A stretch of DNA of 64,000 nucleotides from a virus. Its lineage: Duplodnaviria; Heunggongvirae; Uroviricota; Caudoviricetes. The stretch lies in IMG/VR virus record IMGVR_UViG_3300037743_000091; one strand, 5' to 3'. Each line of letters begins with the position of its first letter. Positions within the stretch are counted from its first letter, which is position 1. The notes below the pieces were generated by a model. It did not search any database and was not told the DNA's origin. It saw nothing but the letters and a program-made list of their open reading frames with translations. Below, in pieces: positions 13,587 to 39,480 of the stretch. A program made the position numbers and the translations under genes.

Positions 13587-13622
13587 GATTTCGAACCAGT
13601 GCCTCGTAGGTGGTTCGAAATC
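13587..13622 (+). repeat. TTTCGAACCA hairpin, copy 1: GATTTCGAACCA, 12 nt loop containing CGTAGG, then TGGTTCGAAATC
   Basis: Perfect 12 bp inverted repeat in the leader of the Cas4-like gene. Related copies at 15223..15276 and 39454..39480. Confidence 0.45.
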
Positions 13623-13641
13623 AGCGATGGAAGGAACTCCT

Positions 13642-14802
13642 ATGGATAAGCAAGCTGCCCCGGCGACCCCCGACGAGGTGCTGTGGATCTCGCCGTCGCG
13701 CCTGAACACGTGGCGCAAGTGCCCCAAGGCGTACGAGTACAGCTACCTACGCGGCCTGACCGTCGCGCAGGCGGGGGCGCAGGTGGACCGCGAGTTGGGT
13801 TCGTGGTGGCACGCGGTGCGTGGTGCCGACTCGATCGCACGAGCACAGCGTCAGGACGATGAGCCCTTGTACGTCCCCCCGACACTCTCCACAGGTGACC
13901 TCGGCCCAGAACTACCCGTGACTCTCCAGACGAACGCCACGGCCGTCCTGGCAGCGTCTGAGAGCTTCTGGCGCACCCTGAGCACGGACGACCGGGACGC
14001 CTGGGTTCAGCGCACCGGGCGGGGGCTTCCGGAGCACCTGGCGGAGATGGACGAGAGATGGCGTGACGTGTGGGACGAAGCTTCGACCGGCGAGAAACTG
14101 CTCGCGGTCGAGTACCCGTTCGCTGTCCGGATCGGGACCACCGGGTACGGCCTGCGTGGTCGCGTGGACGAGATCTACTACGACGCGGAGCGGGATCTGA
14201 CCGTGGTGCGCGATCACAAGTCGAATCGGGACATTCCGCCCAGTGAGTCACTGGAGGACATGCTGGACGCACAGTTGCACCTGTACGCGTGGGCCGTGAG
14301 TCAAGCACTCGTGAAGGTGGACGCCGTGGCCTTCGACCGGGCTCGTTCGAAGCCCGCCGCGACCCCTACCCTCACCAAGTCCGGAAGCCTGTCGAAGTCG
14401 GTCACGGACTACGACGCGCTGGCCTACCTCGCGTTCACGGACGCCCCGGTCCCCTACCCGGGGCTCAAGAAGGACGGGTCCGGCGCGGGTGAGTACACGC
14501 GTGATGAAGACGTACTCGCGAAGCTGCGTACCCCCTCGGAGCGGGACAAGTGGAACCGGCGCACGCTCGATCCCGTGAACCGGCGCATGGTGCGCGGGCA
14601 CATGCGAGAGCTGTTGGCCTCAGCCGTGGACATGCGTCAGGCGCAGGAGCGCTACGCGCGCTCGACGGATGAGGGGATAGGGAACGCTCGCAACCTGTCG
14701 CGGTACTCGTGCAAGGGCTGTGACTTCCTGAGCCTGTGCCTCGACGAGCTGCGTACGGGGCTGATCCTGGAGCCGGACGAGTACGGGCTGCGGGTTCGGT
14801 AG
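13642..14802 (+). CDS. Cas4/RecB-family PD-(D/E)XK exonuclease with Fe-S Cys cluster
   Basis: N-terminal Cys (RKCPKAY), C-terminal C-x2-C-x5-C (YSCKGCDFLSLC) and D ... EIYYD ... DHK nuclease motifs. ATG with GGAAGGAA RBS. Confidence 0.75.
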   Translation: MDKQAAPATPDEVLWISPSRLNTWRKCPKAYEYSYLRGLTVAQAGAQVDRELGSWWHAVRGADSIARAQRQDDEPLYVPPTLSTGDLGPELPVTLQTNATAVLAASESFWRTLSTDDRDAWVQRTGRGLPEHLAEMDERWRDVWDEASTGEKLLAVEYPFAVRIGTTGYGLRGRVDEIYYDAERDLTVVRDHKSNRDIPPSESLEDMLDAQLHLYAWAVSQALVKVDAVAFDRARSKPAATPTLTKSGSLSKSVTDYDALAYLAFTDAPVPYPGLKKDGSGAGEYTRDEDVLAKLRTPSERDKWNRRTLDPVNRRMVRGHMRELLASAVDMRQAQERYARSTDEGIGNARNLSRYSCKGCDFLSLCLDELRTGLILEPDEYGLRVR

Positions 14803-14829
14803 ATCCTGTGAAAATCGGACATATCTCCT

Positions 14830-14936
14830 CCTGATTTTTTATTTCATTCCACCTCCCTCTACCTATAGGGAATCGGGGGTGGTTGGAAACAAATAATCGA
14901 GAATCAGGACCCCGTCTGACCTGGGGTTTCACACAA
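14830..14936. repeat. Conserved hairpin element, copy 2: TTATTTCATTCCACCTCCC, CCTATAGGG loop, GGTGGTTGGAAACAAATAA, then GTCTGACCTGGGGTTTCACA
   Basis: Matches copy 1 in the same orientation relative to transcription, immediately after the Cas4-like gene. Confidence 0.5.
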
Positions 14937-14967
14937 TCTACAAAATCTGTCATGGGAGGAACGTAAC

Positions 14968-15219
14968 ATGCCACTCCGCGTGCGGATCGACTACCCGGGG
15001 AGCACCCGGTATCCGTGGCGTCCTTGGCGGCTCGGCTGGGACCGGTACGGGAGTCGCGCCCTGTTCCTCGGGCTGCCCCGCTTCCGGTGCCTCGCGATCG
15101 TGTACCGCGAGTGCAGGGAGCCGTGTTGTCCATGCGAGTACCTGGAGCCCTACGGCTGCTCGGACTGCTACAACACGGGACACCTACATCTGTACGAACC
15201 GAAGCGGCCCCGGATTTGA
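14968..15219 (+). CDS. Cys-rich small protein (83 aa)
   Basis: ATG with GGGAGGAA RBS. 9 Cys including CCPCEY and CSDCYNTGH. Confidence 0.45.
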   Translation: MPLRVRIDYPGSTRYPWRPWRLGWDRYGSRALFLGLPRFRCLAIVYRECREPCCPCEYLEPYGCSDCYNTGHLHLYEPKRPRI

Positions 15220-15222
15220 TTG

Positions 15223-15276
15223 ATTATTTCGAACCAGTTAGGATGCGCCGTAGGCGCTCCACTGGTTCGAAATAAT
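15223..15276 (+). repeat. TTTCGAACCA hairpin, copy 2: ATTATTTCGAACCAGT, 23 nt loop containing CGTAGG, then ACTGGTTCGAAATAAT
   Basis: Perfect 16 bp inverted repeat directly after the stop of 14968..15219. Confidence 0.45.
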
Positions 15277-15387
15277 AATCAGCGAACCGGAGACCAACTC
15301 ATCTAGCTAGCTCCCCGGTACTCCGCTATACGGGTACCGGGTTAGTTATTCCCCCCGTTTGATATCAGATGGTCTCGGATCTTGTGG

Positions 15388-15409
15388 TAAGGTTACGAAC
15401 GTCAACAAC
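15388..15409 (+). promoter_or_regulatory. Degenerate copy of the promoter core (TAAGGTTACGAACGTCAACAAC)
   Basis: Two substitutions relative to TAATGTTACGAACGTCAGCAC. Upstream of the Sak4-like gene. Confidence 0.3.
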
Positions 15410-15446
15410 ACAGGTCATGGCGACGCCAGACCGGGGAGAGGCAACT

Positions 15447-16283
15447 ATGCAGATTGCTGGGCTTGACATGTTCGACGTCGGGGACGTCGGTGCGGACTAC
15501 GGGAGGTTCCTCCTCCACGGTCCTCAGGGATCGGGCAAGAGCTTCCTGGCCGCGACGATGGCCGAGGTCGGCCCCACGCTGTACGTGGACATGAGGGGTG
15601 AGCGCGGGACGCGGTCGTTCATCGGTACCCCGTACGCGAAGAACATCAAGGTGATCCGACCCAAGTCGATCCAACAGCTTGACTCGCTGTTCTACGCGCT
15701 GGACAAGGGCGATCAGGGGTTCAAGGCGGTGGTTCTGGACTCCCTCACGGCGGTGCAGAAGCTCACCATGCGCTTCCTGCTCGGGCACTCGGAGACGGCG
15801 GTTCGTGAGATCAGCCAAGGGGTTGCCCCGGCCGATCAACGTACCTGGGGCCAGGCGCTCGACATCATGAGCGATGTCCCCACGTTCTGGTACAGCCTCG
15901 CCGACGCGGAGCGTCCCAACCCCATGCACGTCATCCTCACAGCGCAGACCAAGGTCACGGAGGACGAGGTCAATCAGGTCACTTCCCGTGTTCCGGATGT
16001 TCAGCGCGGAGCGCAGTCGATTACGCTAGCCACTCCGGATTACATCCTGTACACAGATACAGAACTCGACTACGACAACCTGAACGATGAGGGTGACCCG
16101 GCTACCCGCCACATCGCCCGATTCGGAAACGATCGGGATTACCGAATCAAGGCACGAGTTCCGGCGCACCTCCACGGGAAGATTCCCCCGGTGCTCGGAC
16201 GCAAGGGACCGATGTCCCTGGTGACCCTGGGGCGCGCCCTCGGCCTGGGTGGTATCCCCGCCAAGCCTGCCGCCAAGAAGTAA
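15447..16283 (+). CDS. RecA-like AAA ATPase (Sak4/AAA_24-like recombination protein)
   Basis: Walker A (HGPQGSGKSF) and Walker B (VVLDSLT). Followed by a DUF669-like gene as in Sak4 modules. ATG with GGGGAGAGG RBS. Confidence 0.7.
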   Translation: MQIAGLDMFDVGDVGADYGRFLLHGPQGSGKSFLAATMAEVGPTLYVDMRGERGTRSFIGTPYAKNIKVIRPKSIQQLDSLFYALDKGDQGFKAVVLDSLTAVQKLTMRFLLGHSETAVREISQGVAPADQRTWGQALDIMSDVPTFWYSLADAERPNPMHVILTAQTKVTEDEVNQVTSRVPDVQRGAQSITLATPDYILYTDTELDYDNLNDEGDPATRHIARFGNDRDYRIKARVPAHLHGKIPPVLGRKGPMSLVTLGRALGLGGIPAKPAAKK

Positions 16284-16312
16284 CCAACAACAGCACAGAG
16301 AAACGAGCATCG

Positions 16313-16918
16313 ATGTACACACTGGATCTCACCGGGTACAAGGAGACGCTGTCTGCAACGGTTCCGGATGGCCGGTACCTCGTGCAGGTGGACGACTACG
16401 AACTCACCAAGACGAAGTCCACCCAAAAGGACATGTTCAACGTCTGGCTCCGGATCGTCGAGGGCGAGTACGCGGGGGAAGTCGTTATCGACCGCCTTAC
16501 CGTGACGGACAAGGCGCTGTTCCGGATCGTCGGGTTCCTCAACGGCCTAGGCATCCCGACTCCGAAGAAGCGCCTGGCCCTCGACCCAAACAAGTGGACG
16601 GGTCGCAAGGTGTGGGTGGACCTGGAGATCGGGGAGCCTTACCGAGGCCGTCCGGGCAAGTCCGAGGTTCGTGGGTACGTGCGCTACGTTCCCGGCGAGG
16701 CGGCTCCTCAAGCCGCGCCGGGTGACGTTCCTGGTACCGTGGAACGTCAGTCCACGCGGGACGAGCTGGACGAGTTCGCTACTGCTCAGGGTGTCGTGAC
16801 GGATACCCCGGCAGAGGCCGATACTCCGGCGACAGCCTCACCTTCGATCGCTGAGGCGGTCGAAGCGAAGGTCTCCGATTCGGAGACGATCAACCTCTCG
16901 GATATCGAGGGGCTGTAA
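16313..16918 (+). CDS. DUF669-like protein (putative ssDNA-binding partner of Sak4)
   Basis: Position after Sak4. Acidic disordered C-terminal tail typical of phage SSB-like proteins. 201 aa. Confidence 0.45.
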   Translation: MYTLDLTGYKETLSATVPDGRYLVQVDDYELTKTKSTQKDMFNVWLRIVEGEYAGEVVIDRLTVTDKALFRIVGFLNGLGIPTPKKRLALDPNKWTGRKVWVDLEIGEPYRGRPGKSEVRGYVRYVPGEAAPQAAPGDVPGTVERQSTRDELDEFATAQGVVTDTPAEADTPATASPSIAEAVEAKVSDSETINLSDIEGL

Positions 16919-17081
16919 CCTAAGACCCCTGGCGGGGAGTAGAGCGCGGTTGTGCTGACACTCAACTCCCTTCGGGTAGCTCCTCCCCGTCAGGTCCAGG
17001 ACCAGCGTCTCACCGTGGCAGGTAACCTGGTCCCCGACGCCCGCCGTGTGTTCTTCCATCCGCGCGGCGGGCGTCGTTCTC

Positions 17082-17153
17082 GCTGGTCTGGCTGATCGGT
17101 TAGGTGCTCGCCTGCAAAGCGAGATCAAGCGGGTTCGAGTCCCGCCACCAGTT
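17082..17153 (+). tRNA. tRNA-Cys(GCA), tentative; D-arm atypical
   Basis: T-arm GCGGG-TTCGAGT-CCCGC. Anticodon arm CTCGC-CTGCAAA-GCGAG. Acceptor 6/7 paired. Confidence 0.4.
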
Positions 17154-17154
17154 C

Positions 17155-17226
17155 GGCCCGTTCGTCCAGCGGTCAGGATTCCGGACCTTCACTCCGGCGA
17201 CAGGGGTTCGACTCCCCTACGGGCTA
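17155..17226 (+). tRNA. tRNA-Glu(TTC), with C at position 33
   Basis: Acceptor GGCCCGT/ACGGGCT. D-arm GTCC..GGAT. Anticodon arm CCGGA-CCTTCAC-TCCGG. T-arm AGGGG-TTCGACT-CCCCT. Confidence 0.5.
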
Positions 17227-17227
17227 C

Positions 17228-17299
17228 GCGGTATTGGTCTAGTGGTTAAGGCACCAGGCTTCCACCCTGGAGACCCGGGTTCGATTCCCGGATACCGCT
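17228..17299 (+). tRNA. tRNA-Gly(TCC)
   Basis: Acceptor GCGGTAT/ATACCGC. Anticodon arm CCAGG-CTTCCAC-CCTGG. T-arm CCGGG-TTCGATT-CCCGG. Confidence 0.75.
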
Positions 17300-17300
17300 C

Positions 17301-17373
17301 GTCGCGTTCGTCTAGTTGGCCAGGACGCCGGTCCCTCACTCCGGAAACACGGGTTCGAATCCCGTACGCGGTA
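17301..17373 (+). tRNA. tRNA-like gene with an atypical, apparently 9-nt anticodon loop; identity unresolved
   Basis: Acceptor GTCGCGT/ACGCGGT. D-arm GTCT..AGGA. T-arm ACGGG-TTCGAAT-CCCGT. Anticodon region GCCGG-TCCCTCACT-CCGG. Confidence 0.4.
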
Positions 17374-17383
17374 CTGTCGAGAA

Positions 17384-17704
17384 ATGGCGCAACCTGAAAC
17401 CCTCCTGGTTAACAAGATCCGGGCCGCAGTCAAGAAGAAGTACCCTGACTCCGTCAGCTTCAAGGTTCACGGAGGCCCCTATCAAACTGGGGGAGTTCCT
17501 GACCTCCTGGTCTTCCTCAACGGCAAGGTGGCCGGATTCGAGGTGAAGAAACAGAAGCTTGGGGAGTCGGAGGAACATGCGCGGGAGCGCGCGACCCTTC
17601 GTCAACGCCTCCGGATTGACGCCTTCCGCAAAGCCGGGTGCCGCGCGGAGGTCGTGCTCTCCGTAGGCGAGGTGCTAACCGTCCTCGCGGACCTGGATAC
17701 GTAA
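17384..17704 (+). CDS. VRR-NUC domain nuclease
   Basis: GVPDLLVF ... GFEVK core of the VRR-NUC (PD-(D/E)XK) fold. 106 aa. Confidence 0.7.
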   Translation: MAQPETLLVNKIRAAVKKKYPDSVSFKVHGGPYQTGGVPDLLVFLNGKVAGFEVKKQKLGESEEHARERATLRQRLRIDAFRKAGCRAEVVLSVGEVLTVLADLDT

Positions 17705-17725
17705 CCATCCTGTTATCTCCCTGGG

Positions 17726-17769
17726 TTGCTAACTCCTGTGACTTCGTGTAATGTTACATATGTCAGCAC
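17726..17769 (+). promoter_or_regulatory. Conserved promoter/operator element: -35 TTGCTA, 17 bp spacer, -10 TAATGT, then TACATATGTCAGCAC
   Basis: Canonical spacing. 25 nt upstream of GGAGG + ATG 17795. Confidence 0.6.
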
Positions 17770-17794
17770 GGAACACCGAACCACGGAGGTCACC

Positions 17795-18046
17795 ATGAAC
17801 AGCACCCGCGAGGAACTGACCCAGGGCGTCAAGTCGTTCAGCGACAAGCTCCTGAACGACCTGCGGAACTCCGCGCACATGGACCGAGCGAACCTGGTCG
17901 AGAACATCACGGGCTACACGATCCCGGAGCGCTCGGAGAAGATCATGCACGTGGACACGATCATCTCCGTGATCGAGGAGGAGCAGGCGCGGCGTAGCGG
18001 ACTCGCTTCTTCGGGGGAGATCCTGGCAGCGTTCGGCGCGAACTGA
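17795..18046 (+). CDS. Hypothetical protein (83 aa)
   Basis: ATG after ACGGAGG RBS. Promoter-proximal. Confidence 0.5.
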   Translation: MNSTREELTQGVKSFSDKLLNDLRNSAHMDRANLVENITGYTIPERSEKIMHVDTIISVIEEEQARRSGLASSGEILAAFGAN

Positions 18047-18131
18047 CTCGCCCGGTGACGGCCCGCTTCTGCGGGACGTTGCCGAGTGGGTTAGCCCGCT
18101 ACGTCAGCACAACTACCGAAAGGAACCCACC

Positions 18132-19202
18132 ATGGTTCACGAAATCACTGACACGGACGCCATGTTTAGCGTCCGCGAAATGCCGTGGCATCGTCTCGGA
18201 ACGGTCCTCACGGACTACCCGACGCGCGAGGAGGCGCAGAAGATCGCCCACGACTGGGAGCCCGTGACGGCCCCGGTGTTCCGCCGCGTGGTCGGCGTCC
18301 ATACCCACGGGAACGAGTGCTACAGCGACTTCGGCTCCGGCGACCTGGAGTGTGAGCAGGCGGAGGGTCCGTTCTCCCGCTTCGAGGAGATCGAGGGACA
18401 GCAGGAGGTCGTCCGCTCGGACAACGGCCACCACATCGGCGTCACGAACGACACCCTCGGGATCGTCACGAACGATGAGATGTACGACATTGCGGAGGCT
18501 GTCCAGGGGCTCAGCGGGGACGTGATGTACGAGACCGGCGGTACCCTTCGCGGAGGCCGTCAGGTGTGGCTCCTCCTGCGCCTCGCGGAGCCCCTGGAGA
18601 TCAAGGGCGATCCTCGCGGCGCGACGATGCAGTACTTCGCCCTCCAGAACAACCACGACGGCGGGGGTTCGTTCCGGGGTCAGGCGATCAACACGAGGAT
18701 CGTGTGCGCGAACACGTCCCGCATGGCCGACATGGACGCCCGCGCCCACGAGACGGAGATCGTCTTCCGGCACACGAAGAACGTGGCGGAGCGCGTCGAG
18801 GAGGCGAAGCAGGCACTGGCCATGTGGCGTACCTCGATCAACGAGTGGCAGCTCTTCAACGAGCACCTGATCTCGTGCAAGATCACGCGGGAGCAGCGGG
18901 AGGAGTTTGTGGAGCGGTTCTTTCCGATACCGCCCACGGGTGTTTCCAAGCGCATGATGACCAACATCGAGAACGACCGGGGGAACCTGCGGGAGATCTT
19001 CGCAGGGGTCACCAGCGAGGGGATCGAGAACACGGCCTACGGCCTGGTTCAGGGTGCAGTGGAGTTCTCCCAGCACTACCGCGCGACCCGGGGCAAGAGT
19101 GACATGGCGCGCAACGAGAACCGTTTCCGCCGGTCCGTCCTGGACAAGGACAAGCTGGTCCGGGGCGCGGCGAAGCTGGCCAAGGAGATCGCCCTCGTGT
19201 GA
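18132..19202 (+). CDS. DUF932 (phage/plasmid-related) protein
   Basis: YFALQNNHDGGGSFRGQAINTRIVCANT block matches the DUF932 R.VC.N signature. 356 aa. GAAAGGAA RBS. Confidence 0.5.
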   Translation: MVHEITDTDAMFSVREMPWHRLGTVLTDYPTREEAQKIAHDWEPVTAPVFRRVVGVHTHGNECYSDFGSGDLECEQAEGPFSRFEEIEGQQEVVRSDNGHHIGVTNDTLGIVTNDEMYDIAEAVQGLSGDVMYETGGTLRGGRQVWLLLRLAEPLEIKGDPRGATMQYFALQNNHDGGGSFRGQAINTRIVCANTSRMADMDARAHETEIVFRHTKNVAERVEEAKQALAMWRTSINEWQLFNEHLISCKITREQREEFVERFFPIPPTGVSKRMMTNIENDRGNLREIFAGVTSEGIENTAYGLVQGAVEFSQHYRATRGKSDMARNENRFRRSVLDKDKLVRGAAKLAKEIALV

Positions 19203-19215
19203 TCCCCTGACCGTA

Positions 19216-19243
19216 GGACGGGCGGCCTTCGGGCCGCCCGTCC
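19216..19243 (+). terminator. I-shaped GC hairpin terminator (GGACGGGCGGCC-TTCG-GGCCGCCCGTCC)
   Basis: Perfect 12 bp stem immediately after the stop of 18132..19202, followed by TTCC. Confidence 0.5.
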
Positions 19244-19269
19244 TTCCGTGCAGTAGAAAGGATGGATAG

Positions 19270-19482
19270 ATGGCGCAGCGTAAGACGACCTTCGAGATGT
19301 GCGATAACCCGGAGTGCGGCAACGAGTACGAGGTCTTCAAGAGCGAACCCCTTCCGGGTTTTGTGATCACACGCGGTAGCTGGGACAACGGCGCGGGTGG
19401 GGGACCGATCCCTCAGACCTACGCGTGCTCCGTGGAATGCTTGCCCGCTGCCGTACTTTGCCGGATCGGGGAGGAGGGATGA
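19270..19482 (+). CDS. Zinc-finger protein (70 aa)
   Basis: CDNPECG ... CSVEC Cys4. AAAGGATGG RBS. Confidence 0.5.
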   Translation: MAQRKTTFEMCDNPECGNEYEVFKSEPLPGFVITRGSWDNGAGGGPIPQTYACSVECLPAAVLCRIGEEG

Positions 19483-19796
19483 GCGAGGAGTACGAGCCTC
19501 ACACTGAGGAGGAAGTACGCCAGAGCGCCGCTGACACACTCCGGCACGCCCGTCTCGATACCAAGGGGATCATCTGGGGTAAGAGGAGCAAGGATGATCG
19601 CCGGTCGGCGTGGCGCACCCTGGAGTCAGCTTCCCTGTCGGCGGCCTCCATGTGTGCCCAGTGGACGGCAGCGGGAGATCCGTTCGCCATGCACCAGGCG
19701 GTCAAGTGGGCTCGTGTGTTCGTCCTCCTGGACGATCGCCGTAAGCGCATGTTCAGGATGCACCGGGATCGTTTATTCGGGAGGTTTCTTAAATGA
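19479..19796 (+). CDS. Hypothetical protein (105 aa)
   Basis: ATGA overlap. GGGAGGAGGG RBS. Confidence 0.5.
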   Translation: MSEEYEPHTEEEVRQSAADTLRHARLDTKGIIWGKRSKDDRRSAWRTLESASLSAASMCAQWTAAGDPFAMHQAVKWARVFVLLDDRRKRMFRMHRDRLFGRFLK

Positions 19797-20167
19797 GGTA
19801 CCTCGGACCTCTTCCGTTCCCTGTGAGGACTCTTGGGGACGTGTGGGATCTTTCGGTACCGATTCCTCCACGCCGCCACCTCCGGACCTTGGGAGATTTC
19901 TGGGACCTGCCGGACGTGGTTATCCGTGTCCTGGAGATGCGGGAGAGGGAACAGGAGGAAGAGGACATGGACGAGGACGACGAGTGGACCGAGGAGGACG
20001 ACGCGGAGGAGGGATGGAGGCAGTACAGGTACGCGAAGAATCAGGTACTCGCTGCTCGGAAGATCCTCGACGACCTCGAACGAGCCCTGGAAGACGCGGT
20101 ACGTCTTCGTGAGTTCCGTCAGGAATTCAGGCGCATTACTAATAGCTCCCACTTCTACCGGGGGTGA
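19793..20167 (+). CDS. Hypothetical acidic protein (124 aa)
   Basis: TAAATG overlap. GGAGG RBS. Glu/Asp-rich central stretch. Confidence 0.45.
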   Translation: MRYLGPLPFPVRTLGDVWDLSVPIPPRRHLRTLGDFWDLPDVVIRVLEMREREQEEEDMDEDDEWTEEDDAEEGWRQYRYAKNQVLAARKILDDLERALEDAVRLREFRQEFRRITNSSHFYRG

Positions 20168-20190: not shown

Positions 20191-21099
20191 ATGGCCGAAG
20201 AATCGTTCTACCTGTTGGAACACAAGAATCCACACCTCGATCAGTACGGGGAGGAACGTCGATACGACCAAACACCGTCAGGCACTATCGTCATTCACAC
20301 GGCGGAGAACGTCGCGGATCAACTCGGGGGAGACCTCGGGGCGGAGAACGTAGCGGCCTATGTCGTGAGGCGGACGAACCACGGTTCTTATCACCGGCTC
20401 GTCGATGCTGATTCCATTATTAAGATGGCGCCTTTCGGGTACGAAACGTGGCATTGCCGTAATACCAATCCGTGGTCCATCGGTATTTCCATGGCGGTCA
20501 TGGCTGACGACTGGGATAAGTACTCGGACGATTACGTGATGCGAGTTCTCCGCAATGCGGCTCGTGCGGCAGCGGAAGCAGTTCGGGACCTTAAGAAGTA
20601 TTGGAAGGTCACAGTCCCCCTCGAACACATCACGGGATCTCAGGCGCTTGCCAAGCGCCCGGGATTCACTGGACACGGAGAGACGGACCCGACTCGACGG
20701 CACGACCCCGGCTCCGGGTTCCCGTGGGCTCGTTTCCTGAATCTGGTTCGCGAGGAACTGGGAGACGACCCGATCGAAGCGGAACCGGTCAACAACCCGA
20801 TCACTCCCGCCAAGCCCAAGCCCGCCCCGAAACCGAAGGGAACCGAATACCGCATGAACCGTCTCGACTTGCGTACCGCGCACCGTACAAAGATCTATAA
20901 CGACGATATGAAGAAGTGGCAAGGGCTGCTGCTCGCCCACGGTTACGGTCCGCGCGGTCTCGTGGAGACCACTGGACGGCCGGATGGGATCGGCGGTGCC
21001 TATACGCGGCGTGCGACGCTGGCCTTCCAGAAGAAGGCGGGTATCGAGGAGGACGCCGTGGTCGGCCCTATCACCTGGAAGAAGGCCCTGGAGGGGTAA
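20191..21099 (+). CDS. Endolysin: N-acetylmuramoyl-L-alanine amidase (amidase_2/PGRP-like) with C-terminal peptidoglycan-binding domain
   Basis: IVIHTAE ... GHGETDPTRRHDPGSGFPW amidase_2 motifs. C-terminal PG_binding_1 repeat (WQGLLLAHGY ... DGIGGAYTRRATLAFQKKAGIEEDAVVGPITWKKAL). Confidence 0.75.
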   Translation: MAEESFYLLEHKNPHLDQYGEERRYDQTPSGTIVIHTAENVADQLGGDLGAENVAAYVVRRTNHGSYHRLVDADSIIKMAPFGYETWHCRNTNPWSIGISMAVMADDWDKYSDDYVMRVLRNAARAAAEAVRDLKKYWKVTVPLEHITGSQALAKRPGFTGHGETDPTRRHDPGSGFPWARFLNLVREELGDDPIEAEPVNNPITPAKPKPAPKPKGTEYRMNRLDLRTAHRTKIYNDDMKKWQGLLLAHGYGPRGLVETTGRPDGIGGAYTRRATLAFQKKAGIEEDAVVGPITWKKALEG

Positions 21100-23029: not shown

Positions 23030-23198
23030 TGTGTTGTTCCTGGTCCTGCTGATTGCGGGTTGCTTGCTCGTGGTCGGGTGCGGGATCGAACTGCTGTTGT
23101 GGATGCTCAGGGTGTCGATGCGCATGGGCGGGGGCGTGTGGCTGTGGGGCGCGACGTGCGTCGGTGCGGTCGTGTTCATGAACCATCTTGCGTGGTAA
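23016..23198 (+). CDS. Small membrane protein (60 aa)
   Basis: GAGGGAGAG RBS. Two hydrophobic segments. Confidence 0.4.
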   Translation: MTQDDVLFLVLLIAGCLLVVGCGIELLLWMLRVSMRMGGGVWLWGATCVGAVVFMNHLAW

Positions 23199-23265
23199 CT
23201 CAGGGCGTTATCTAACCGTGATGGAAGATCAGACGGATTAGGTAGCGCCCTGAGTTGTTGTGATG

Positions 23266-23961: not shown

Positions 23962-23971
23962 CCTGTTCTCT

Positions 23972-24014
23972 CACACTGGGGCGATAACCCGTTTGTGGTT
24001 ATCGCCCCAGTGTG
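23972..24014 (+). terminator. Hairpin terminator (CACACTGGGGCGATAACC-CGTTTGT-GGTTATCGCCCCAGTGTG) overlapping the next promoter
   Basis: Perfect 18 bp stem directly after stop 23961. Its 3-prime arm abuts TAATGT of the next promoter copy. Confidence 0.5.
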
Positions 24015-24015
24015 C

Positions 24016-24036
24016 TAATGTTACGTACGTCAGCAC
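24016..24036 (+). promoter_or_regulatory. Conserved promoter core (TAATGTTACGTACGTCAGCAC)
   Basis: 22 nt upstream of AAAGGAAG + ATG 24059. Confidence 0.5.
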
Positions 24037-25884: not shown

Positions 25885-25885
25885 C

Positions 25886-32988: not shown

Positions 32989-33185
32989 GCGTGGCTCAGC
33001 CTGTAGGGCCGTGCGCCGCTGATGGGTGCGGCGCACGGTTCGAGCCGGGCGATTACTGGGTTTATCACTCCAGGTTGAATGCCTACGTGCATTCGATCTG
33101 CTCAACTACTCGGACCGTTAAGGGCGAGGACATTCAGGGACACACAATTACCTGCGGACAGATTCCTGAGGAGAACGAAGAATGA
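32985..33185 (+). CDS. Cys/His-rich small protein (66 aa)
   Basis: GTGA overlap. CAADGCGARF ... HSIC. Confidence 0.4.
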   Translation: MSVAQPVGPCAADGCGARFEPGDYWVYHSRLNAYVHSICSTTRTVKGEDIQGHTITCGQIPEENEE

Positions 33186-34798
33186 GAACGTGGAAGAACC
33201 TGTCGAACGCGGCTGAACCGCGTGAGGGGGATCGCGTCACCCTTGAGCAGGGGGATAGGCTCGCCCGATTCGTCGTGGACCACATCGATCCGAACGGGTT
33301 TCTGTGGGACGGTCAGGATGAGATGCAGAGCGCGGCGTATGAAGTGCTTCCCCGACTCCCTATGGAGAAGGACGGATTCCTGATCGTTCACGACCCTTAC
33401 GCCTGGGGCGTGATGCAGATTGAGCGCCTGGAGTCTGAGGTGAAGCCTGGCACGATCGGGGTCGCGACCGTGCGAGGTGTCAAGAACGTGCGGGTAGTGC
33501 GCACATATCATGACACGGTGCCCTGGTTTAGTCCGTCCTCGCGTATTGAAAAGAGCCGGTGGTATGCCGAGGAATCGGTTACCGATTTCGTCCCCGACGA
33601 CGCCGAGGCGCTGCGGCGGGAGGTCGGTCTCCTGACCCACAAGCTGGACAAGTTGCAGCAGGCGCACGACATCATCGCGAAGGATCGTGACGCGCACCTC
33701 CAGGCCGTGGCGCGTGTGGCCGAGGAGAGGAACGAGGCCCGGCGCGAGGCCAAGCGGCTCGGCAAGGCGTTCGACGACCTGACCGAGCAGTGGCGTGCCC
33801 AGAACGCCGCGATCAACGACGCCGGGCAGTACCTGATCCCGGTCGATCGGGCGAGTGAAGGTCTCGCAGGCGATGCCCGGGCGCTGCGGGCTGAGGTCGA
33901 GCGCCTGACCGCCGTGCTGGCGGAAAAGGAGCAGGCGCTCGACGGCGTCTATGGCCGCCTGGACCGGATGCAGCAACGCGCCGAACAGGCAGAGGCCGAG
34001 ACCGAGCGCGTGGGCCGCCGTTACGCGGAGCAGGCGCAGAAGTTCGAGAGCCTCGACGCGCTCGTCAACGGTCAGCAGATCAAGATCCAGACCCTGGAGA
34101 ACATCCGCGACGCTCTCCGCGAGGAAATCAAGGCTCTGCGCGCCACCCGCACGCTGCCGACGCGGGAGCGGCGGGAGCAGGTGGTGGACCTGCTGATCGC
34201 GTTCAGCAACGACCGCGCGGACGAGTGGGACACGGCGGACAAGATCATTGCCCTCTTCGAGCAGGACGGCGCGTCCTCGGGGGACCTTCTCCCCGTAGTA
34301 GAGAATCTGGTCCGAGAGTGTCAGCAGAAGAACGCCGACTGCGAGCGTTACGCACAGGCTCTTTCCGAGGCGGAAAGAGAGCGCAACGTGCTCCGCCGTG
34401 AGCGTGACGAGATGCGTCAGGAGCGGGACTCAGCGGAGCGGGCTGCCAACGCGGCCGAGGCCCGTACCCGTATCGCTGAGCGAGAGGTTGACCGCCTCCG
34501 CAAGAAGGTTCTTCCCAAGGATCTGACCGCGTGCGCGTGTCACACTCACGCACAGGACGCCGGAGCTGGATTCACGGAGTACACCGTGGAGTACGAGCCC
34601 GCGTGTCCGATTCACTCGACGCATGTCTACAACCCGCGCACGGGCCAGTGGAGAAGCCTGCCCGATCAGGTGGCCCTTGCCAAGGCCATCGGAGACGGTC
34701 AGCGTGAGGTTCCCGGTAGCGGTACTTTCTTGAAGGAGATCAAGCCGGAGTACGCCGCGAACCGTGTTATTCACCTGCTTAAGATGTGGGGCCTCTGA
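33182..34798 (+). CDS. Large coiled-coil protein with C-terminal Cys/His cluster
   Basis: 538 aa. About 300 aa of heptad-like Ala/Glu/Arg/Leu-rich sequence, then CACHTH ... PACPIHSTH. ATGA overlap. GAGGAGAACGAAGA RBS. Confidence 0.55.
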   Translation: MRTWKNLSNAAEPREGDRVTLEQGDRLARFVVDHIDPNGFLWDGQDEMQSAAYEVLPRLPMEKDGFLIVHDPYAWGVMQIERLESEVKPGTIGVATVRGVKNVRVVRTYHDTVPWFSPSSRIEKSRWYAEESVTDFVPDDAEALRREVGLLTHKLDKLQQAHDIIAKDRDAHLQAVARVAEERNEARREAKRLGKAFDDLTEQWRAQNAAINDAGQYLIPVDRASEGLAGDARALRAEVERLTAVLAEKEQALDGVYGRLDRMQQRAEQAEAETERVGRRYAEQAQKFESLDALVNGQQIKIQTLENIRDALREEIKALRATRTLPTRERREQVVDLLIAFSNDRADEWDTADKIIALFEQDGASSGDLLPVVENLVRECQQKNADCERYAQALSEAERERNVLRRERDEMRQERDSAERAANAAEARTRIAEREVDRLRKKVLPKDLTACACHTHAQDAGAGFTEYTVEYEPACPIHSTHVYNPRTGQWRSLPDQVALAKAIGDGQREVPGSGTFLKEIKPEYAANRVIHLLKMWGL

Positions 34799-35049
34799 TG
34801 GACCAGGATAAGAACCTGGTCGGGTACAACGTCGAATACCGTTATGAAGACCTGGTATTTACACGAACTGAGACCAGGGAGTATCACGTAGGGTTCGTGA
34901 TCTATATTTCGAACCTGGACAAGTGGCGCGCCAAGTTTCGGGATGACCCTCATGAAGCGCCATCAACGGTGTTCGACTCCGTGGACGAGGCTCGCTCTTA
35001 CCTGATTCAGCGATACGAACAGACGGTATTCGGAAAGAAGGTTGAGTAA
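34798..35049 (+). CDS. Hypothetical protein (83 aa)
   Basis: TGATG overlap. Confidence 0.45.
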   Translation: MDQDKNLVGYNVEYRYEDLVFTRTETREYHVGFVIYISNLDKWRAKFRDDPHEAPSTVFDSVDEARSYLIQRYEQTVFGKKVE

Positions 35050-35262
35050 ATGGAACAGGACCACTACCTGATGCGCTACTTCGACACGTCGAGGCGCACT
35101 CAGAACACGAACATCCGGGACGTAGCACGCAAGTTCGAGGAACTGGTCGCGTTCCTGAACGACTTCCTGCCGGAGGGCTCAGAAAAGTCCTTCGCCATGC
35201 GACAAGTTCTCCTCGCCAAGGACGCCGGGTGCCGCTCCGCTCTCGATCTCCCGGAGGGATGA
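35050..35262 (+). CDS. Hypothetical protein (70 aa)
   Basis: AAGAAGG RBS. Confidence 0.45.
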   Translation: MEQDHYLMRYFDTSRRTQNTNIRDVARKFEELVAFLNDFLPEGSEKSFAMRQVLLAKDAGCRSALDLPEG

Positions 35263-35420
35263 CCATGGGGCTGTTCGATAAGAAGCCTGTTCCTGAGTCC
35301 GACGATCCTGAGCGACCCCCGAAGGGTCCGGCTAGCGTGAGCCGCAAAAGGGAGGATCAGGACAAGGAGACCCCGGAGGTTCGGATCACTACGACGTACG
35401 AAATCTGGGGTACCCGATGA
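35259..35420 (+). CDS. Hypothetical protein (53 aa)
   Basis: ATGA overlap. CCGGAGGG RBS. Confidence 0.35.
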   Translation: MTMGLFDKKPVPESDDPERPPKGPASVSRKREDQDKETPEVRITTTYEIWGTR

Positions 35421-35435
35421 TGAGGGAGAAGTGAC

Positions 35436-35657
35436 ATGTGTGGTGACTGCTTCAACGGAGGACAGTGTGCCCAGTGTCGGAGTGATTCCGACACGGTCGT
35501 CACGACGCGGGAGGCCCTGGGTGGTGCGCTCAGGGACGCGGTGTCGTATATGGACTACGACCTCTACAAGTCCCTGGAAACCCCGGAAAACGGCGAAGAG
35601 GGAATGACGTTCGCTGAGGTGCTGGACCGCTTCGTGAAGAACCTGGAGGATCAGTGA
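35436..35657 (+). CDS. Cys-rich small protein (73 aa)
   Basis: MCGDCFNGGQCAQC. GGGAGAAG RBS. Confidence 0.4.
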   Translation: MCGDCFNGGQCAQCRSDSDTVVTTREALGGALRDAVSYMDYDLYKSLETPENGEEGMTFAEVLDRFVKNLEDQ

Positions 35658-36265
35658 TCCCGGAGGGTATGGAGCCCGAGGGCCGGTACACGAAAAAGCG
35701 CAAGGATTGCCCGTACCCGGAACGCCTGCACTCTCCGGATCAGGACTCCACGGAGTACGAGGTCAGTAGATGGATCGCTGCTACGGTCGGAATGCTCCGT
35801 CCGGATCTCGTGGTGGAGACCGGAACGGCCTTCGGGCAGACGGCCGAACTCATTGGGGAGATGCTGGGGGAGACCCCGCATGGCTTGTTGATGACGTTCG
35901 AGACCGATCCGGCGCGCGTGAAGATCGCACGGGAGCGCGTTATGGAGATGCGCGTTGAGGTTCACCAGGAGTCGAGCCTGGACGGTCTGCGTGCGTTGGC
36001 GCACCTCGTAGAGATCGGGCAGCGCCCGAAGGTGGGGTTCGCCTGGCTGGACTCCCTGTTCGAGCTTCGAGCGAAGGAGCTGCGTATCGTGACCCCGATG
36101 CTTTCGCCGGGAGCCTTCGTGGGGATTCACGACTGCGGGGAACCCGGACACACGAAATACAACCCGTTTTCCCGGCAGATCGCGACGGAGGCCGAACGCC
36201 TCAAGTACAACCGGATCAGTGCCCCGACGCCACGTGGTGTGACGCTGCTCCAGAAGAGATGGTGA
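35654..36265 (+). CDS. Class I SAM-dependent methyltransferase
   Basis: Motif I VVETGTAFGQTA. GTGA overlap. 203 aa. Confidence 0.6.
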   Translation: MIPEGMEPEGRYTKKRKDCPYPERLHSPDQDSTEYEVSRWIAATVGMLRPDLVVETGTAFGQTAELIGEMLGETPHGLLMTFETDPARVKIARERVMEMRVEVHQESSLDGLRALAHLVEIGQRPKVGFAWLDSLFELRAKELRIVTPMLSPGAFVGIHDCGEPGHTKYNPFSRQIATEAERLKYNRISAPTPRGVTLLQKRW

Positions 36266-36274
36266 TTACATTAA

Positions 36275-36781
36275 ATGCCCCCACCGGCTCCAGAGTGGGA
36301 GAGGTTCTGGCCCAAGGTAAACCTTCTAGCTAAGGATGGTTGCTGGGAATGGGTAGCCGGGAAGTCTGGCAGTGGATACGGACGATTTAACGCCGGAAGC
36401 ACTACTACTGGAAATAACCGATCTGTCCAGGCGCATAGAAGATCATATGAGTGGTTCGTTGGAGATATCCCGAATGGACTTGACTTAGATCACTTGTGCC
36501 GTAATCGAGCGTGTGTTAATCCTGATCATCTTGAACCGGTTACCCGGTCCGAGAATGTCCGAAGAGGACTCGTCCCAGGCTTGTTGCGGGAAGTTCAGAG
36601 ACGTAACTCTCAGGCAATTACACATTGCCCACAAGGACATGAGTACAACAAAGACAACTGTCGGGTAGGCGCAGCCGGAGCAAGGCACTGTAGGAAGTGC
36701 CAGGCGCAGCGGGCGAGAGAACATAGGAAGACGAAGAAGTACAAGGACTGGTACACCGCATGGAAGGGGCGTAAAGGATGA
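36275..36781 (+). CDS. HNH endonuclease (HNH_3/homing-type) in a low-GC segment
   Basis: DGCWEW ... GYGR ... AHR ... DHLCRNRACVNPDHLEPVT ... EN. Local GC clearly lower than flanks. Confidence 0.7.
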   Translation: MPPPAPEWERFWPKVNLLAKDGCWEWVAGKSGSGYGRFNAGSTTTGNNRSVQAHRRSYEWFVGDIPNGLDLDHLCRNRACVNPDHLEPVTRSENVRRGLVPGLLREVQRRNSQAITHCPQGHEYNKDNCRVGAAGARHCRKCQAQRAREHRKTKKYKDWYTAWKGRKG

Positions 36782-37422
36782 AATGTAGCGTAATTATTCC
36801 CACTATTCGTGGAAGGGAAAAGCTACTGGATCGGGCGCTGTCCTCAGTGAAGGCTCAGGACTTTACCGATTTTGAAGTCCTCGTAGAAATGGATGACCGA
36901 GGGGACGGTCCTGCGGTAGTTCGTAATCGGGCAGCAAACAGGGCTACCGGGGACTTTCTGGCGCTACTCGATGATGACGACGAGTTCAAGCCGGGACACC
37001 TAACCAAGTGCATTCGTCACGCCGAGGAGACCGGGGCGGACATCGTGTACCCCTGGTTCGATCTCATGCGCGGGAAAGTCCTCCGCAACGACACAAAGGT
37101 TCTCCTCCAACAGGACGGGAACGGGGGGAAGGTGGACGCCTTCGAGAAGCCGTTTAGTGTCAATGCCCTGCGCAAGAACAACTACATCCCTGTCACGACC
37201 GTGATCCGTACCGACAAGTTCTTGGAGGTGGGCGGGTTTCCGACCCCGGGGACCGACGCGTGGCCTCACAAGGACTGTGAGGACTGGGGGCTGTGGCTGC
37301 GCATGGTTGAGGACGGAGCCACGTTCTCGCACCTGCCAGAGCGGACGTGGACCTGGTGGTGGCACGGGCGGAACACCTCGGGACGTCCTGACAACGCCCG
37401 TAAGATCTACGGCCAGGCGTGA
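36778..37422 (+). CDS. Family 2 glycosyltransferase (GT-A fold)
   Basis: CSVIIPTIRGRE ... DFEVLVEMDD ... DFLALLDDDDEF (DXD motif). 214 aa. Confidence 0.7.
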   Translation: MKCSVIIPTIRGREKLLDRALSSVKAQDFTDFEVLVEMDDRGDGPAVVRNRAANRATGDFLALLDDDDEFKPGHLTKCIRHAEETGADIVYPWFDLMRGKVLRNDTKVLLQQDGNGGKVDAFEKPFSVNALRKNNYIPVTTVIRTDKFLEVGGFPTPGTDAWPHKDCEDWGLWLRMVEDGATFSHLPERTWTWWWHGRNTSGRPDNARKIYGQA

Positions 37423-37427
37423 ACTCT

Positions 37428-37457
37428 GGGCCCGACTCCCCTTGTGGGAGTCGGGCC
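37428..37457 (+). terminator. Hairpin terminator (GGGCCCGACTCCC-CTTGT-GGGAGTCGGGCC)
   Basis: 12-13 bp stem immediately after stop 37422. Adjacent to the next promoter copy. Confidence 0.5.
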
Positions 37458-37471
37458 TCGTCCACATGTGG

Positions 37472-37491
37472 TAATGTTACGAACGTCAGCA
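37472..37491 (+). promoter_or_regulatory. Conserved promoter core (TAATGTTACGAACGTCAGCAC)
   Basis: 23 nt upstream of GGGAGGAGGGG + ATG 37515. Confidence 0.5.
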
Positions 37492-37514
37492 CGTCCACAG
37501 AGGGAGGAGGGGAC

Positions 37515-37835
37515 ATGGAGGAAGAGAAAGAGACCGTGGACCTCATGGAACTGAGGTACATGCGAGAACTTCCGGGAGTCCTGGCGGGCTCCCTGGTATC
37601 CGTGGTTATTGGGCTCATCCTGGCTGTCTGGGCTGGCCTCGTCTACCGGATCACGGACGGCAGGTGGGATGACCTGCTGCTCGGCCTGCTCGGTATGGCC
37701 ATGGCGTCATTCGGAGCCAAGACCTTCGGAAGTAACCTCGGTAGCTCGGTGCGTGAACTCAGTGCATGGCTGGGTGTCATCCACACGAACACGCGCTCGA
37801 AGAAGGACCCGGAGGACTTTCCCCATGAGGGCTAA
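37515..37835 (+). CDS. Membrane protein (106 aa, 2 TM)
   Basis: Hydrophobic helices LAGSLVSVVIGLILAVWAGLV and LLLGLLGMAMASFGA. Confidence 0.5.
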   Translation: MEEEKETVDLMELRYMRELPGVLAGSLVSVVIGLILAVWAGLVYRITDGRWDDLLLGLLGMAMASFGAKTFGSNLGSSVRELSAWLGVIHTNTRSKKDPEDFPHEG

Positions 37836-38001
37836 CTGGGGTATCCGCCCGGAGCCGGACCCCAAGGACGGGACCTGCGGCAAGCCGCTCAAGCGAGCAC
37901 GCTTCGTAGGCCGCCCGGTGGAGAAGCCCACCGATGTGGCCCAGGGCTCCTATGAGCAGGAGTACTGCCCCAAGCCTCGCGGTCATTGGGGTGAGTGCTA
38001 G
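37825..38001 (+). CDS. Small Cys-containing protein (58 aa)
   Basis: ATG overlapping the upstream stop region. CGKP ... CPKP. Confidence 0.35.
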   Translation: MRANWGIRPEPDPKDGTCGKPLKRARFVGRPVEKPTDVAQGSYEQEYCPKPRGHWGEC

Positions 38002-38025
38002 CGCTACTAGTCATGGGGAGAGGTC

Positions 38026-38325
38026 ATGACGTCGAACTTGGACGATGACGCGACAGTCACGGCGCTCAATGCGCGGTTGGCTCGTGTCACGGCCAGGCAT
38101 GAGGAAGCCATCGTCATTCGGAACAGGTTGGCTCGGTTTACCGAAGGACGAATCTGGACGGATCGCTACCCGGGCCAGGATGTCTACTACGTGACGATGG
38201 ATCAGCGAGCGGCGGCCGACCTGGCGCGGCTCCTTACGGAGAAGCAGAAGAAAACGGCCCGAGAGGCGTTCAAGACCGTTCTCTTCGCTATCACCCGGAA
38301 TTATCACAGACCGAAAGAAAGATGA
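38026..38325 (+). CDS. Hypothetical protein (99 aa)
   Basis: GGGGAGAGG RBS. Confidence 0.45.
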   Translation: MTSNLDDDATVTALNARLARVTARHEEAIVIRNRLARFTEGRIWTDRYPGQDVYYVTMDQRAAADLARLLTEKQKKTAREAFKTVLFAITRNYHRPKER

Positions 38326-38335
38326 CGTGATCAGT

Positions 38336-39241
38336 ATGTCAGACAGCACTGAGCAGTACGCATGGAAGAACGTCAGCCCGGTTCTCTACACGGACGGGGT
38401 GGACATCTTCGCGGCGGACATGACGCCGGAGGTCGCTTCGGAACTCCTCGGGCACAACCCCAAGAACCGCACGATCTCGGCGAAGAACACCGGGCGCATC
38501 ATGCGTCAGGTCGAGAAGGGCGAGTGGAAGTTTAACGGGGACGCTATCCGTATCACTGCGGACGGAAAGCTCATCGACGGGCAGCACCGGGCCCTGGCCT
38601 GTATCAACGCGAACACGTCGATTCGGGTTCTCGTGGTGCATGGGGTTCCGGCCGAGGTTCAGGACACCATTGACACGGGACGCCCCCGCACCCTGGCCGA
38701 CATCCTCGCCATCCGTGGGTACACGAACACCAACGCTCTGTCCGTGGTCCTGCGGGGGATCTACACGCGGGAGAACGCTGCACTGGAGCGCTGCTTCGAG
38801 ATGGCCGGGCCCGTGGCCCGTCTCCGGTGGACGAACGCGGAACTCCTGGCCTTCCTGAACAAGAACGAGGAGCGCGTTCTCGATTTGGTCAAGGTCTCCA
38901 CCTCCCGTTCGGACAAGATCCCGTACATGCCCCGGAGTGTCACGGCCGTCCTGACCGAGGAGTTCGAGGACGCCTCGTACATGGACGCTGACGAGTTCTG
39001 GCACCGGCTCACGACCGGAATCGCTGACAGCGCGGATGAGGCGTGTTTTGTCCTTCGTAGGACGCTCCAGCGTGAGGCCGACAAGCACGACCGCGAGGGC
39101 CGCTCGAACGTGTGGGTGGCTGCCCTGACGATCAAGGCATGGAACGCCTACCTCCAGGGCAGGCCGGTCAATCACCTCCGCATGATCCGTGGTGGAAGCC
39201 AGCCCGAGGCATTCCCCAGCGTCCTGACTCGGGCGGAATAA
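38336..39241 (+). CDS. ParB-like nuclease domain protein
   Basis: ParB N-terminal box (GHNPKNRTISAKNTGRI ... ITADGKLIDGQHRALACI). 302 aa. Confidence 0.65.
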   Translation: MSDSTEQYAWKNVSPVLYTDGVDIFAADMTPEVASELLGHNPKNRTISAKNTGRIMRQVEKGEWKFNGDAIRITADGKLIDGQHRALACINANTSIRVLVVHGVPAEVQDTIDTGRPRTLADILAIRGYTNTNALSVVLRGIYTRENAALERCFEMAGPVARLRWTNAELLAFLNKNEERVLDLVKVSTSRSDKIPYMPRSVTAVLTEEFEDASYMDADEFWHRLTTGIADSADEACFVLRRTLQREADKHDREGRSNVWVAALTIKAWNAYLQGRPVNHLRMIRGGSQPEAFPSVLTRAE

Positions 39242-39261
39242 ATCCGCGTCGAGATTTGTTA

Positions 39262-39364
39262 GCCGCTAGGCGGTGCGCGGAGCGCGGCGGCGATTTGCGG
39301 CGGAGCGACCCCTAGGGAGCGGAAGACGTAAATCGCCAGAGTGCGCCGGGTGACGCCTAGCGGC
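39262..39364. repeat. Roughly 100 bp nested imperfect palindrome centred on CCCTAGGG
   Basis: Outer arms GCCGCTAGGCGG / CGCCTAGCGGC. Inner arms GGCGATTTGC / GTAAATCGCC. Non-coding, immediately after the ParB-like gene. Confidence 0.4.
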
Positions 39365-39453
39365 TGCGAACCGGGAGGTCTCTCCCAAAATAGGGCTATA
39401 GCAGTAGATGTAACCCCGCGTTCAGCCCAAACTTTCCGCACGGTTTACCGTCG

Positions 39454-39480
39454 TTATTTCTAACCGCTGGTTTGAAATAA
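39454..39480 (+). repeat. TTTCGAACCA-family hairpin, copy 3 (TTATTTCTAACC-GCT-GGTTTGAAATAA)
   Basis: Imperfect inverted repeat related to 13587 and 15223 copies. AT-rich surroundings. Confidence 0.3.

Follow-up and report, generated by a model that had tools for sequence, protein, structure and literature searches.

Intergenic hairpins in the replication module of an uncultured actinophage-like phage, conserved in place and pairing and possibly acting in early transcripts

The hairpin family and its gene neighborhood

IMG/VR record IMGVR_UViG_3300037743_000091 provides a 64,000-nucleotide phage genome segment (hereafter the window, to which all coordinates refer unless another locus is named) with a GC content of ~61%. 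This study concerns a family of inverted repeats, able to fold as hairpins, that lie in it in gaps between called genes of the replication module. No known phage matched this region in a nucleotide search, and the nearest named phages, the Microbacterium phages and Dulem virus 38, are distant (31–46% protein identity); the source is an uncultured high-GC, actinophage-like phage lineage. A leftward gene block (1–13282) includes a DNA polymerase (6474–8516), a SprT-like gene (8513–8995), a SNF2 helicase (9177–10829) and a replication protein in which Prim-Pol (PF09250) and AAA_25 domains are joined (10985–13282; assigned with Pfam, with tblastn leading to DnaB-like helicases), here called the PrimPol-helicase. 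The rightward block, from 13642 on, starts with a PD-(D/E)XK or Cas4-like exonuclease (13642–14802), a Cys-rich open reading frame (ORF) of 83 amino acids (14968–15219) and Sak4 (15369–16283), and continues 3′ of Sak4 with an SSB-like gene, a DUF932 gene and an endolysin, on to the terminase and portal genes.

An earlier note, made from the letters of this DNA, had described three copies with perfect arms and variable loops, two of the loops carrying CGTAGG. Site 1 (13586–13623, plus strand) has 13-bp arms, TGATTTCGAACCA/TGGTTCGAAATCA (13586–13598 and 13611–13623), that are 100% complementary and enclose a 12-nt loop with CGTAGG inside; the hairpin comprises 16–20 pairs, its RNA fold has z = −3.8 against shuffles, and a covariance model built from the reported family and its two homologs matches it with E = 4e-8. 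Its base adjoins the Shine-Dalgarno sequence GGAAGGAA of the exonuclease gene, and it ends 18 nt before the start codon at 13642. Site 2 (15216–15282, plus strand) is a nested hairpin with 16-bp outer arms, also 100% complementary (15223–15238 and 15261–15276), an AT-rich extension at its base, and a 22-nt loop containing both CGTAGG and an inner helix, GCGCC-GTA-GGCGC (15245–15257). It starts at the TGA stop codon (15217–15219) of the Cys-rich ORF, upstream of Sak4, and is the strongest fold of the three (z = −9.1; E = 6e-17 in the covariance model). Sites 1 and 2 share the core TTTCGAACCAG. Site 3 (39454–39480, plus strand), in the gap at 39242–39529, is AT-rich, with 12-nt arms TTATTTCTAACC/GGTTTGAAATAA around a 3-nt loop; one T·T mismatch, ~10 pairs and a fold barely better than shuffles (z = −2.8 to −1.9; E = 6e-5) make it a marginal, weak member. 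The perfect arms thus hold for sites 1 and 2 and fail at site 3, while the CGTAGG loops of sites 1 and 2 and the three gene contexts (the exonuclease leader, the position after the Cys-rich ORF and upstream of Sak4, and the 39242–39529 gap) were all given correctly.

Chance is excluded as the origin of the family, since the pattern TTTCNAACC-N0-30-GGTTNGAAA occurs four times in the window and not once in 100 shuffles, and TTTCGAACCAG with at most one mismatch occurs six times against 0.95 expected. The family is also larger than first reported, with five cis elements in the window. The covariance model re-finds a hairpin at 10899–10960 (E = 5e-6) and gives no match in the window beyond this one and sites 1–3. 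This element, site 0 (10897–10961, minus strand), lies 24 nt downstream of the PrimPol-helicase stop codon and has long arms, TTATTTGTTTCCAACCACC, and the loop TGTACCTATAGGGGGTCCG in gene sense; outer pairing stretches the hairpin to ~90 nt. Its arms show a compensated G>C change (TTTCCAACC/GGTTGGAAA), its fold has z = −6.8, and its stem, like that of site 2, reaches 24–27 pairs. The fifth element, site 1b (~14829–14905, plus strand; z = −3.2), is a decayed inverted copy with the 3′ arm GGGTGGTTGGAAACAAATAATCGA intact, a mutated 5′ arm and the loop TCTACCTATAGGGAATCG.

Sites 0 and 1b belong to inverted copies of one ~135-nt cassette that consists of the hairpin, then GTCTGACCTGGGGTTTCACA, then GGGAGGAAYGTAACATG, which includes the start codon and occurs only at these two places. 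The leader at site 0 (10827–10896, minus strand; GTCTGACCTGGGGTTTCACA ... GGGAGGAATGTAACATG) ends at the SNF2 helicase start codon, and that at site 1b (14906–14970, plus strand; GTCTGACCTGGGGTTTCACA ... GGGAGGAACGTAACATG) ends at the start of the Cys-rich ORF; in both cassettes the 3′ arm and leader are better preserved than the 5′ arm. The Cys-rich ORF lacks a homolog in any of the fetched relatives and is bordered by a duplicated regulatory cassette upstream and the site 2 hairpin at its stop codon, and thus looks like an inserted gene. Just downstream of the two hairpins, at 10876–10884 and 14913–14921, stands GGTCWGACC, a palindrome of 9 bp that reads CGTCTGACC at the second position; this box also adjoins hairpins in five other loci (L008, L009, L013, L019 and L001) and is a candidate regulator site. 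A lone half-site, TTTCGAACC (34907–34915), adjoins a small hairpin, ATCACG-TAGGGTT-CGTGAT, in the intergenic gap at 34884–34917 and may be a relic of another copy.

Several further structures were seen in the window. Just downstream of the DNA polymerase stop codon, a hairpin at 6288–6331 (TACGCGCTTTCCTC/GAGGAAAGTACGTA) carries CCGTAGG in its loop and is missed by the covariance model. The loop motif alone, CYRTAGG, is only marginally enriched (31 occurrences against 19.7 expected, with one of 100 shuffles reaching 31). A separate set of hairpins with GGGCG(A/T)TA(A/T)C arms, at 23197–23256 and 23969–24017 and in the 73% relative L008 at 20080–20145 and 20847–20894, is probably the first hairpin family of the earlier note. 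The gap that holds site 3, after the gene at 38327–39241, also contains a conserved structured element (~39258–39375) with an outer helix TTAGCCGCTAGGCGG/CGCCTAGCGGCTG and an inner stem whose pairs covary among four phages while the 27-nt loop that they enclose, GCGGAGCGACCSCTAGGGAGCGRMAGA, does not vary; this element has no Rfam match. At 13470–13480, where the primase operon and the exonuclease gene diverge, there is an extended −10-like box, ATGATACATT (TGnTACATT), that is kept in all relatives examined (TGTTACATT in L013) and is likely to be the early rightward promoter.

Conservation in related phages

Relatives were gathered through homologs of the exonuclease as contigs with the same gene order, namely L008 and L009 (73 and 72% exonuclease identity) and L010, L011, L012, L013 and L001 (43–59%), and a further sample comprised 54 metagenome loci. 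Long inverted repeats fill the matching intergenic slots in nine related metagenomic phages (43–73% exonuclease identity). Every relative with the divergent arrangement has them after the primase gene and before the exonuclease gene, and some have them after SNF2 or before the Sak4 or lysin gene. The post-primase copies begin 0–24 nt past the stop codon, and in nine phages 14–25 nt separate the end of the hairpin base, which adjoins the Shine-Dalgarno sequence, from the exonuclease start codon. More broadly, a hairpin that ranks in the top 5% of control windows from the same locus was found within 200 nt upstream of the exonuclease gene at 20 of 53 loci.

The occupied slots carry differing arm sequences in L001 and L008–L016. 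Copies within one phage have an arm sequence in common, and the arms differ by clade: TTTGTTTCCAACCACC-like in the window, L008 and L009, TTCATCAC-like in L001, L010, L011 and L014–L016, polypyrimidine in L012 and TTTCTAACTTTGAGGTTTGAGGT in L013. A common shape recurs, with a 5′ arm that is T-rich and then C-rich, a short A/T loop, often with CCCTATAGGG at its center, and a 3′ arm that is G-rich and then A-rich. Arm lengths in the relatives reach 25–45 nt, and some copies are perfect palindromes with no spacer. A count over ~700 kb of loci gave 29 occurrences of CCCTATAGGG or a close variant, nearly all at a hairpin center; a literature search for this motif in phage papers returned nothing relevant. 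For 12 hairpins of one clade, RNAalifold found double compensatory changes at 9 of 23 pairs. The elements are real, non-random and intergenic, and their place and pairing are conserved across relatives while their sequence is not.

The earlier note had made its proposal depend on conservation of the stem in homologous phages, and for its three sites the outcome is mixed. At site 1, the orthologs in L008 and L009 retain the blocks CCGGATCGATTTGATTTCG (13575–13593 in the window, plus strand, overlapping the 5′ arm and identical in all three phages despite differing surroundings) and TGGTTSGAAAC, but not the 13-bp stem; both phages also have a giant hairpin with 36–43-nt arms before the exonuclease gene. 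Site 2 has no ortholog before Sak4 in L008 or L009, and its type is kept at another slot: a clear homolog of the whole nested hairpin stands directly after the SNF2 stop codon (TGA) on the other strand. Its outer arms are TTTCGAACCA/TGGTTCGAAA, it too has a GC inner helix, and its gene-sense strand carries G(G/T)TAGGAT. Among three gaps orthologous to that of site 3, one (L070; other arms, z = −4.6) holds a hairpin and two (L068 and L069) do not. The post-primase hairpins of L008 and L009 are weakly matched by the covariance model (E = 0.004–0.02).

In two distant relatives (L020 at 5880–5990 and L029 at 1290–1400), perfect 32-bp palindromes centered on CCCTATAGGG are followed by a promoter-like TTGAAA-N17-TAGACT that overlaps a second perfect palindrome, TAGACTCGCTAGCGAGTCTA. 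Searches with the exact hairpin pattern in viral contigs gave six matches in unrelated low-GC phages, several of them next to tRNA genes, which we treat as chance. A host REP or MITE-like repeat was rejected, the exact-arm pattern having given one unrelated match in 185,579 species genomes.

Action in RNA or in DNA

We tentatively favor, with a probability of roughly 0.4, the reading that the hairpins represent repeated copies of an intergenic stem-loop cassette particular to this lineage, placed at cistron boundaries of the early replication and recombination module, where they punctuate early transcripts through termination, attenuation, processing or stabilization. The inverted repeats would be transcribed within the long leftward and rightward early operons and would fold in the mRNA. 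The folded repeats could then act as terminators or attenuators that lack a U-tract, as processing sites for a double-strand RNase of the RNase III type, or as end-protecting structures, and the outcome would be to set the amount of transcript and translation that reaches the next cistron. That the elements act as RNA and not as DNA, which RNA step they would control, and that copies within one genome are alike through cassette duplication and not through a shared binding factor are all inferences.

The placement of the elements is consistent with such a role, each of them lying 0–25 nt from a stop codon or 14–25 nt from a start codon. Three independent comparisons moreover show the asymmetric loops pointing with the flanking gene: in L013 the loop of the leftward copy is the reverse complement of that of the rightward copy, sites 0 and 1b carry the same loop in gene sense, and G(G/T)TAGGAT stands in gene sense both in site 2 and in the leftward L008 and L009 copies. 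The pre-exonuclease copy, in the divergent region with no gene upstream on the same strand, fits a leader element. The earlier note had argued from the variable loop length for an RNA hairpin over a dimeric operator. The hairpin half of that argument stands, because the spacer varies (3, 12 and 22 nt in the window and ~31–33 nt in L008 and L009), the arms reach 25–45 nt in relatives and compensatory changes keep the pairing, behavior that speaks for hairpins over a dimeric operator of fixed geometry. The RNA half finds no support in the wobble pairs: those that would form in the sense RNA only are not enriched (71 versus 58, p = 0.29).

This last result also counts against transcript punctuation, as do several others. 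Folding energies do not consistently favor the sense over the antisense strand, and many arms, at 27–45 nt, exceed in length and perfection what RNA function normally requires. A 3′ U-tract is missing from every copy: on both strands the flanking sequence is rich in T 5′ of the hairpin and rich in A 3′ of it, and so the elements are not canonical intrinsic terminators; a scan for rho-independent terminators called no family member. That arms are shared within a phage and specific to a clade suggests a binding protein that co-evolves with them. Of the five window copies, four are crowded into 4.4 kb around the PrimPol gene and not spread along the 50-kb rightward operon, and in distant relatives the element stands upstream of a sigma-70-like promoter (TTGAAA-N17-TAGACT), outside the exonuclease mRNA. 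The AT-rich centers and flanks point the same way.

Some of these features would be expected if the hairpins worked as DNA, as stem-loops or cruciforms used by the phage PrimPol-helicase as replication origin, helicase-loading or priming sites, which we regard as possible though rather doubtful. In every relative with this gene order, the Prim-Pol (PF09250) and AAA_25 gene is followed directly by a long, extended stem-loop (−46 to −78 kcal/mol) whose structure is kept and whose sequence is not. The wobble pairs show no bias towards the RNA strand, the arms of one genome are alike and clade-specific, and short direct repeats occur within arms (TTTGAGGTTTGAGGT in L013; CATCATCAC; CACCACCACC). 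A GC-rich core with an AT-rich center and AT-rich flanks is a layout that favors cruciform extrusion, and the elements have such a core, a TATA center and such flanks. The window copies cluster around the primase gene and at the GC-skew minimum, and the loop orientation that matches the genes would also be that of the lagging-strand template for forks leaving the divergent region. The precedent is plasmid pRN1, in which a ~100-nt stem-loop downstream of the prim-pol/helicase gene orf904 is required for replication (Berkner et al. 2014, PMC4234260), with conservation of the structure and not the sequence of the stem-loop in pRN plasmids and some phages (PMC4234260). The likeness holds for site 0 (10897–10961) and its orthologs in L001, L008–L010 and L012–L015, where a stem-loop conserved in structure and not in sequence also follows a PF09250 prim-pol gene. 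It does not extend to sites 1–3, none of which is the post-primase copy, and here there are two to five copies per genome, including those before the lysin gene and at 39 kb. The helicase domain is AAA_25 or DnaB-like (Pfam, tblastn) and not the superfamily 3 helicase with winged helix of ORF904, the tight spacing to start codons is left unexplained, and after the primase genes of the distant PrimPol phages Hendrix and Dulem virus 38 we found ordinary hairpins only. The wider form of this proposal, in which the hairpins are distributed cruciform-capable DNA signals read by the PrimPol-helicase, their arms co-evolve with the replication protein and the CCCTATAGGG-centered palindrome is the ancestral core across a large uncultured phage clade, seems to us equally doubtful.

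A protein-binding DNA element of another kind would be an inverted repeat that serves as an operator, with or without a promoter inside it, for a phage-specific transcription factor, as is now proposed for the extended start-associated sequences (ESAS) of Cluster K mycobacteriophages; we consider it unlikely. Site 2 does contain a sigma-70-like match, TTGATT (15216–15221) and TAGGAT (15239–15244) separated by 17 nt with a G at −14; TAGGAT is retained in L008 and L009 although its pairing partner differs, the 3′-arm motif TGGTTSGAAA is better conserved than its complement, and the arms are clade-specific. However, such matches are not enriched, at 2 of 31 hairpins against 0.6 expected (a background of 1.9% per scanned window), the spacing to the −35-like hexamer is 14–15 nt in L008 and L009, arms of 25–45 nt with spacers of 0–33 nt are unsuited to a dimer on duplex DNA, and a helix-turn-helix regulator was not found next to the sites. 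Still more improbable are palindromic cassettes that are selfish or spread passively, do little themselves and would have been copied along with gene starts in modular recombination, as in the PeSL precedent of T4-like phages (PMC2839356, PMC4122927). They would account for the inverted ~135-nt copies at sites 0 and 1b with their ribosome-binding site and ATG context, for the Cys-rich ORF without relatives that the copies flank, for the different slots of the site 2 type in the window and in L008 and L009, and for the decayed look of sites 1b and 3. Yet the post-primase and pre-exonuclease slots are retained with pairing across 43–73% protein identity, which argues for selection, no target-site duplications were seen, and the repeat is not one of host genomes (the single unrelated match in the genome collection mentioned above).

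The earlier suggestion that the arm derives from or mimics a tRNA T-arm is not supported and is close to refuted. A T-arm is a 5-bp stem closing a 7-nt loop, TTCRANN. In favor of the idea there is an 8–9-nt resemblance of GGTTCGAAA to the T-arm consensus, and in L009 the site 1 ortholog (~9822–9838) could adopt this stem and loop geometry as CCTGG-TTCGAAA-CCAGG. Neither the window nor L008 has such a fold, GGTTCGAAA is base-paired as stem in sites 1–3 and does not form a T-loop, and other family members have unrelated arms. ARAGORN found nine tRNAs, at 17082–17374 (four genes) and 59175–59582 (five genes), and none at the hairpins, and Rfam scans of 10500–15600, with gathering thresholds and by E-value, gave no match to tRNA or any other family at them. 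Besides these two tRNA clusters, the window encodes at 49921–51192 a DpdA-like homolog of queuine tRNA-ribosyltransferase, a hint of DNA modification with 7-deazaguanine.

Readings of the hairpins as promoters of other kinds were not supported. A T7-like promoter (CTATAGGGAG in the loops) was rejected because there is no RNA polymerase gene and the motif occurs only twice in 64 kb, and an extracytoplasmic function (ECF) sigma reading (GAAC ... CGTA) was rejected because the spacing varies from 8 to 14 nt. As to an N4-type hairpin promoter, neither the annotated genes of the window nor the genes called in relatives included an ORF longer than 765 amino acids or an RNA polymerase family; the virion module outside the window was not covered.

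Described counterparts and meaning for the clade

Among described elements, the ESAS of Cluster K mycobacteriophages come closest. They are imperfect 15–17-bp inverted repeats with a variable spacer and a subcluster-specific consensus, and they precede some of the non-structural genes (Pope et al. 2011, PMC3203893). Those of Adephagia were read in 2024 as SigA-like promoters flanked by inverted repeats, with regulator binding possible (PMC11373665). The layout is common to both groups: a variable spacer (3, 12 and 22 nt here), an intergenic position just upstream of early genes (18 nt before the start in the case of site 1), lineage-specific arms, orientation with the gene, conservation that follows gene families, and a difference in conservation between the two arms. 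The 13-bp SAS, GGGATAGGAGCCC, is lacking in the window leaders read, sites 0 and 1b sharing GGGAGGAAYGTAACATG at the start codon instead, and no sequence relation is shown; the arms here are often much longer, up to 45 nt, and near-perfect, and some copies follow stop codons. A promoter is mostly lacking too, since SigA-like hexamers 17–18 bp apart are found in the ESAS, whereas one window copy only, site 2 (TTGATT-17-TAGGAT), has a counterpart.

Two other systems are functional analogies only. The PeSL elements of T4-like phages, in which a stem-loop that is a terminator precedes a sigma-70 early promoter (PMC2839356, PMC4122927), resemble the hairpins as short composite stem-loop cassettes at gene boundaries that flank variable small ORFs, here around an orphan ORF; unlike them, the present elements have no U-tract and no consistent promoter, and host group and sequence are unrelated. 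Among the elements themselves, sites 0 and 2 reach 24–27 pairs, site 1 16–20 and site 3 ~10, against the roughly two turns of double-stranded RNA that serve as a criterion for RNase III, with transcription taken from gene order. T7-like phages carry RNase III hairpins between early genes, with characteristic internal loops and proven cleavage. Here, too, there are directional intercistronic stem-loops of ~20–30 bp, alike within a genome and fixed in position among relatives, but their stems are near-perfect palindromes with no wobble bias towards the sense strand.

For the window alone the practical value is modest, with five cis elements defined and the tRNA idea corrected. For the wider group, inverted repeats of the ESAS type have been on record in actinophages, with no established function, since 2011, and this clade is a second, independent example, which adds much longer arms, clear positional orthology across deep divergence and a fixed link to the PrimPol-helicase gene. 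Should the hairpins prove to be read by the PrimPol-helicase, the pRN1 stem-loop origin principle would extend to the DnaB-like PrimPol fusions of tailed phages. The longer arms, the positional orthology and the PrimPol-helicase link together make the clade a clean comparative system for telling action in mRNA (termination, processing, translation) from action in DNA (origin, operator).

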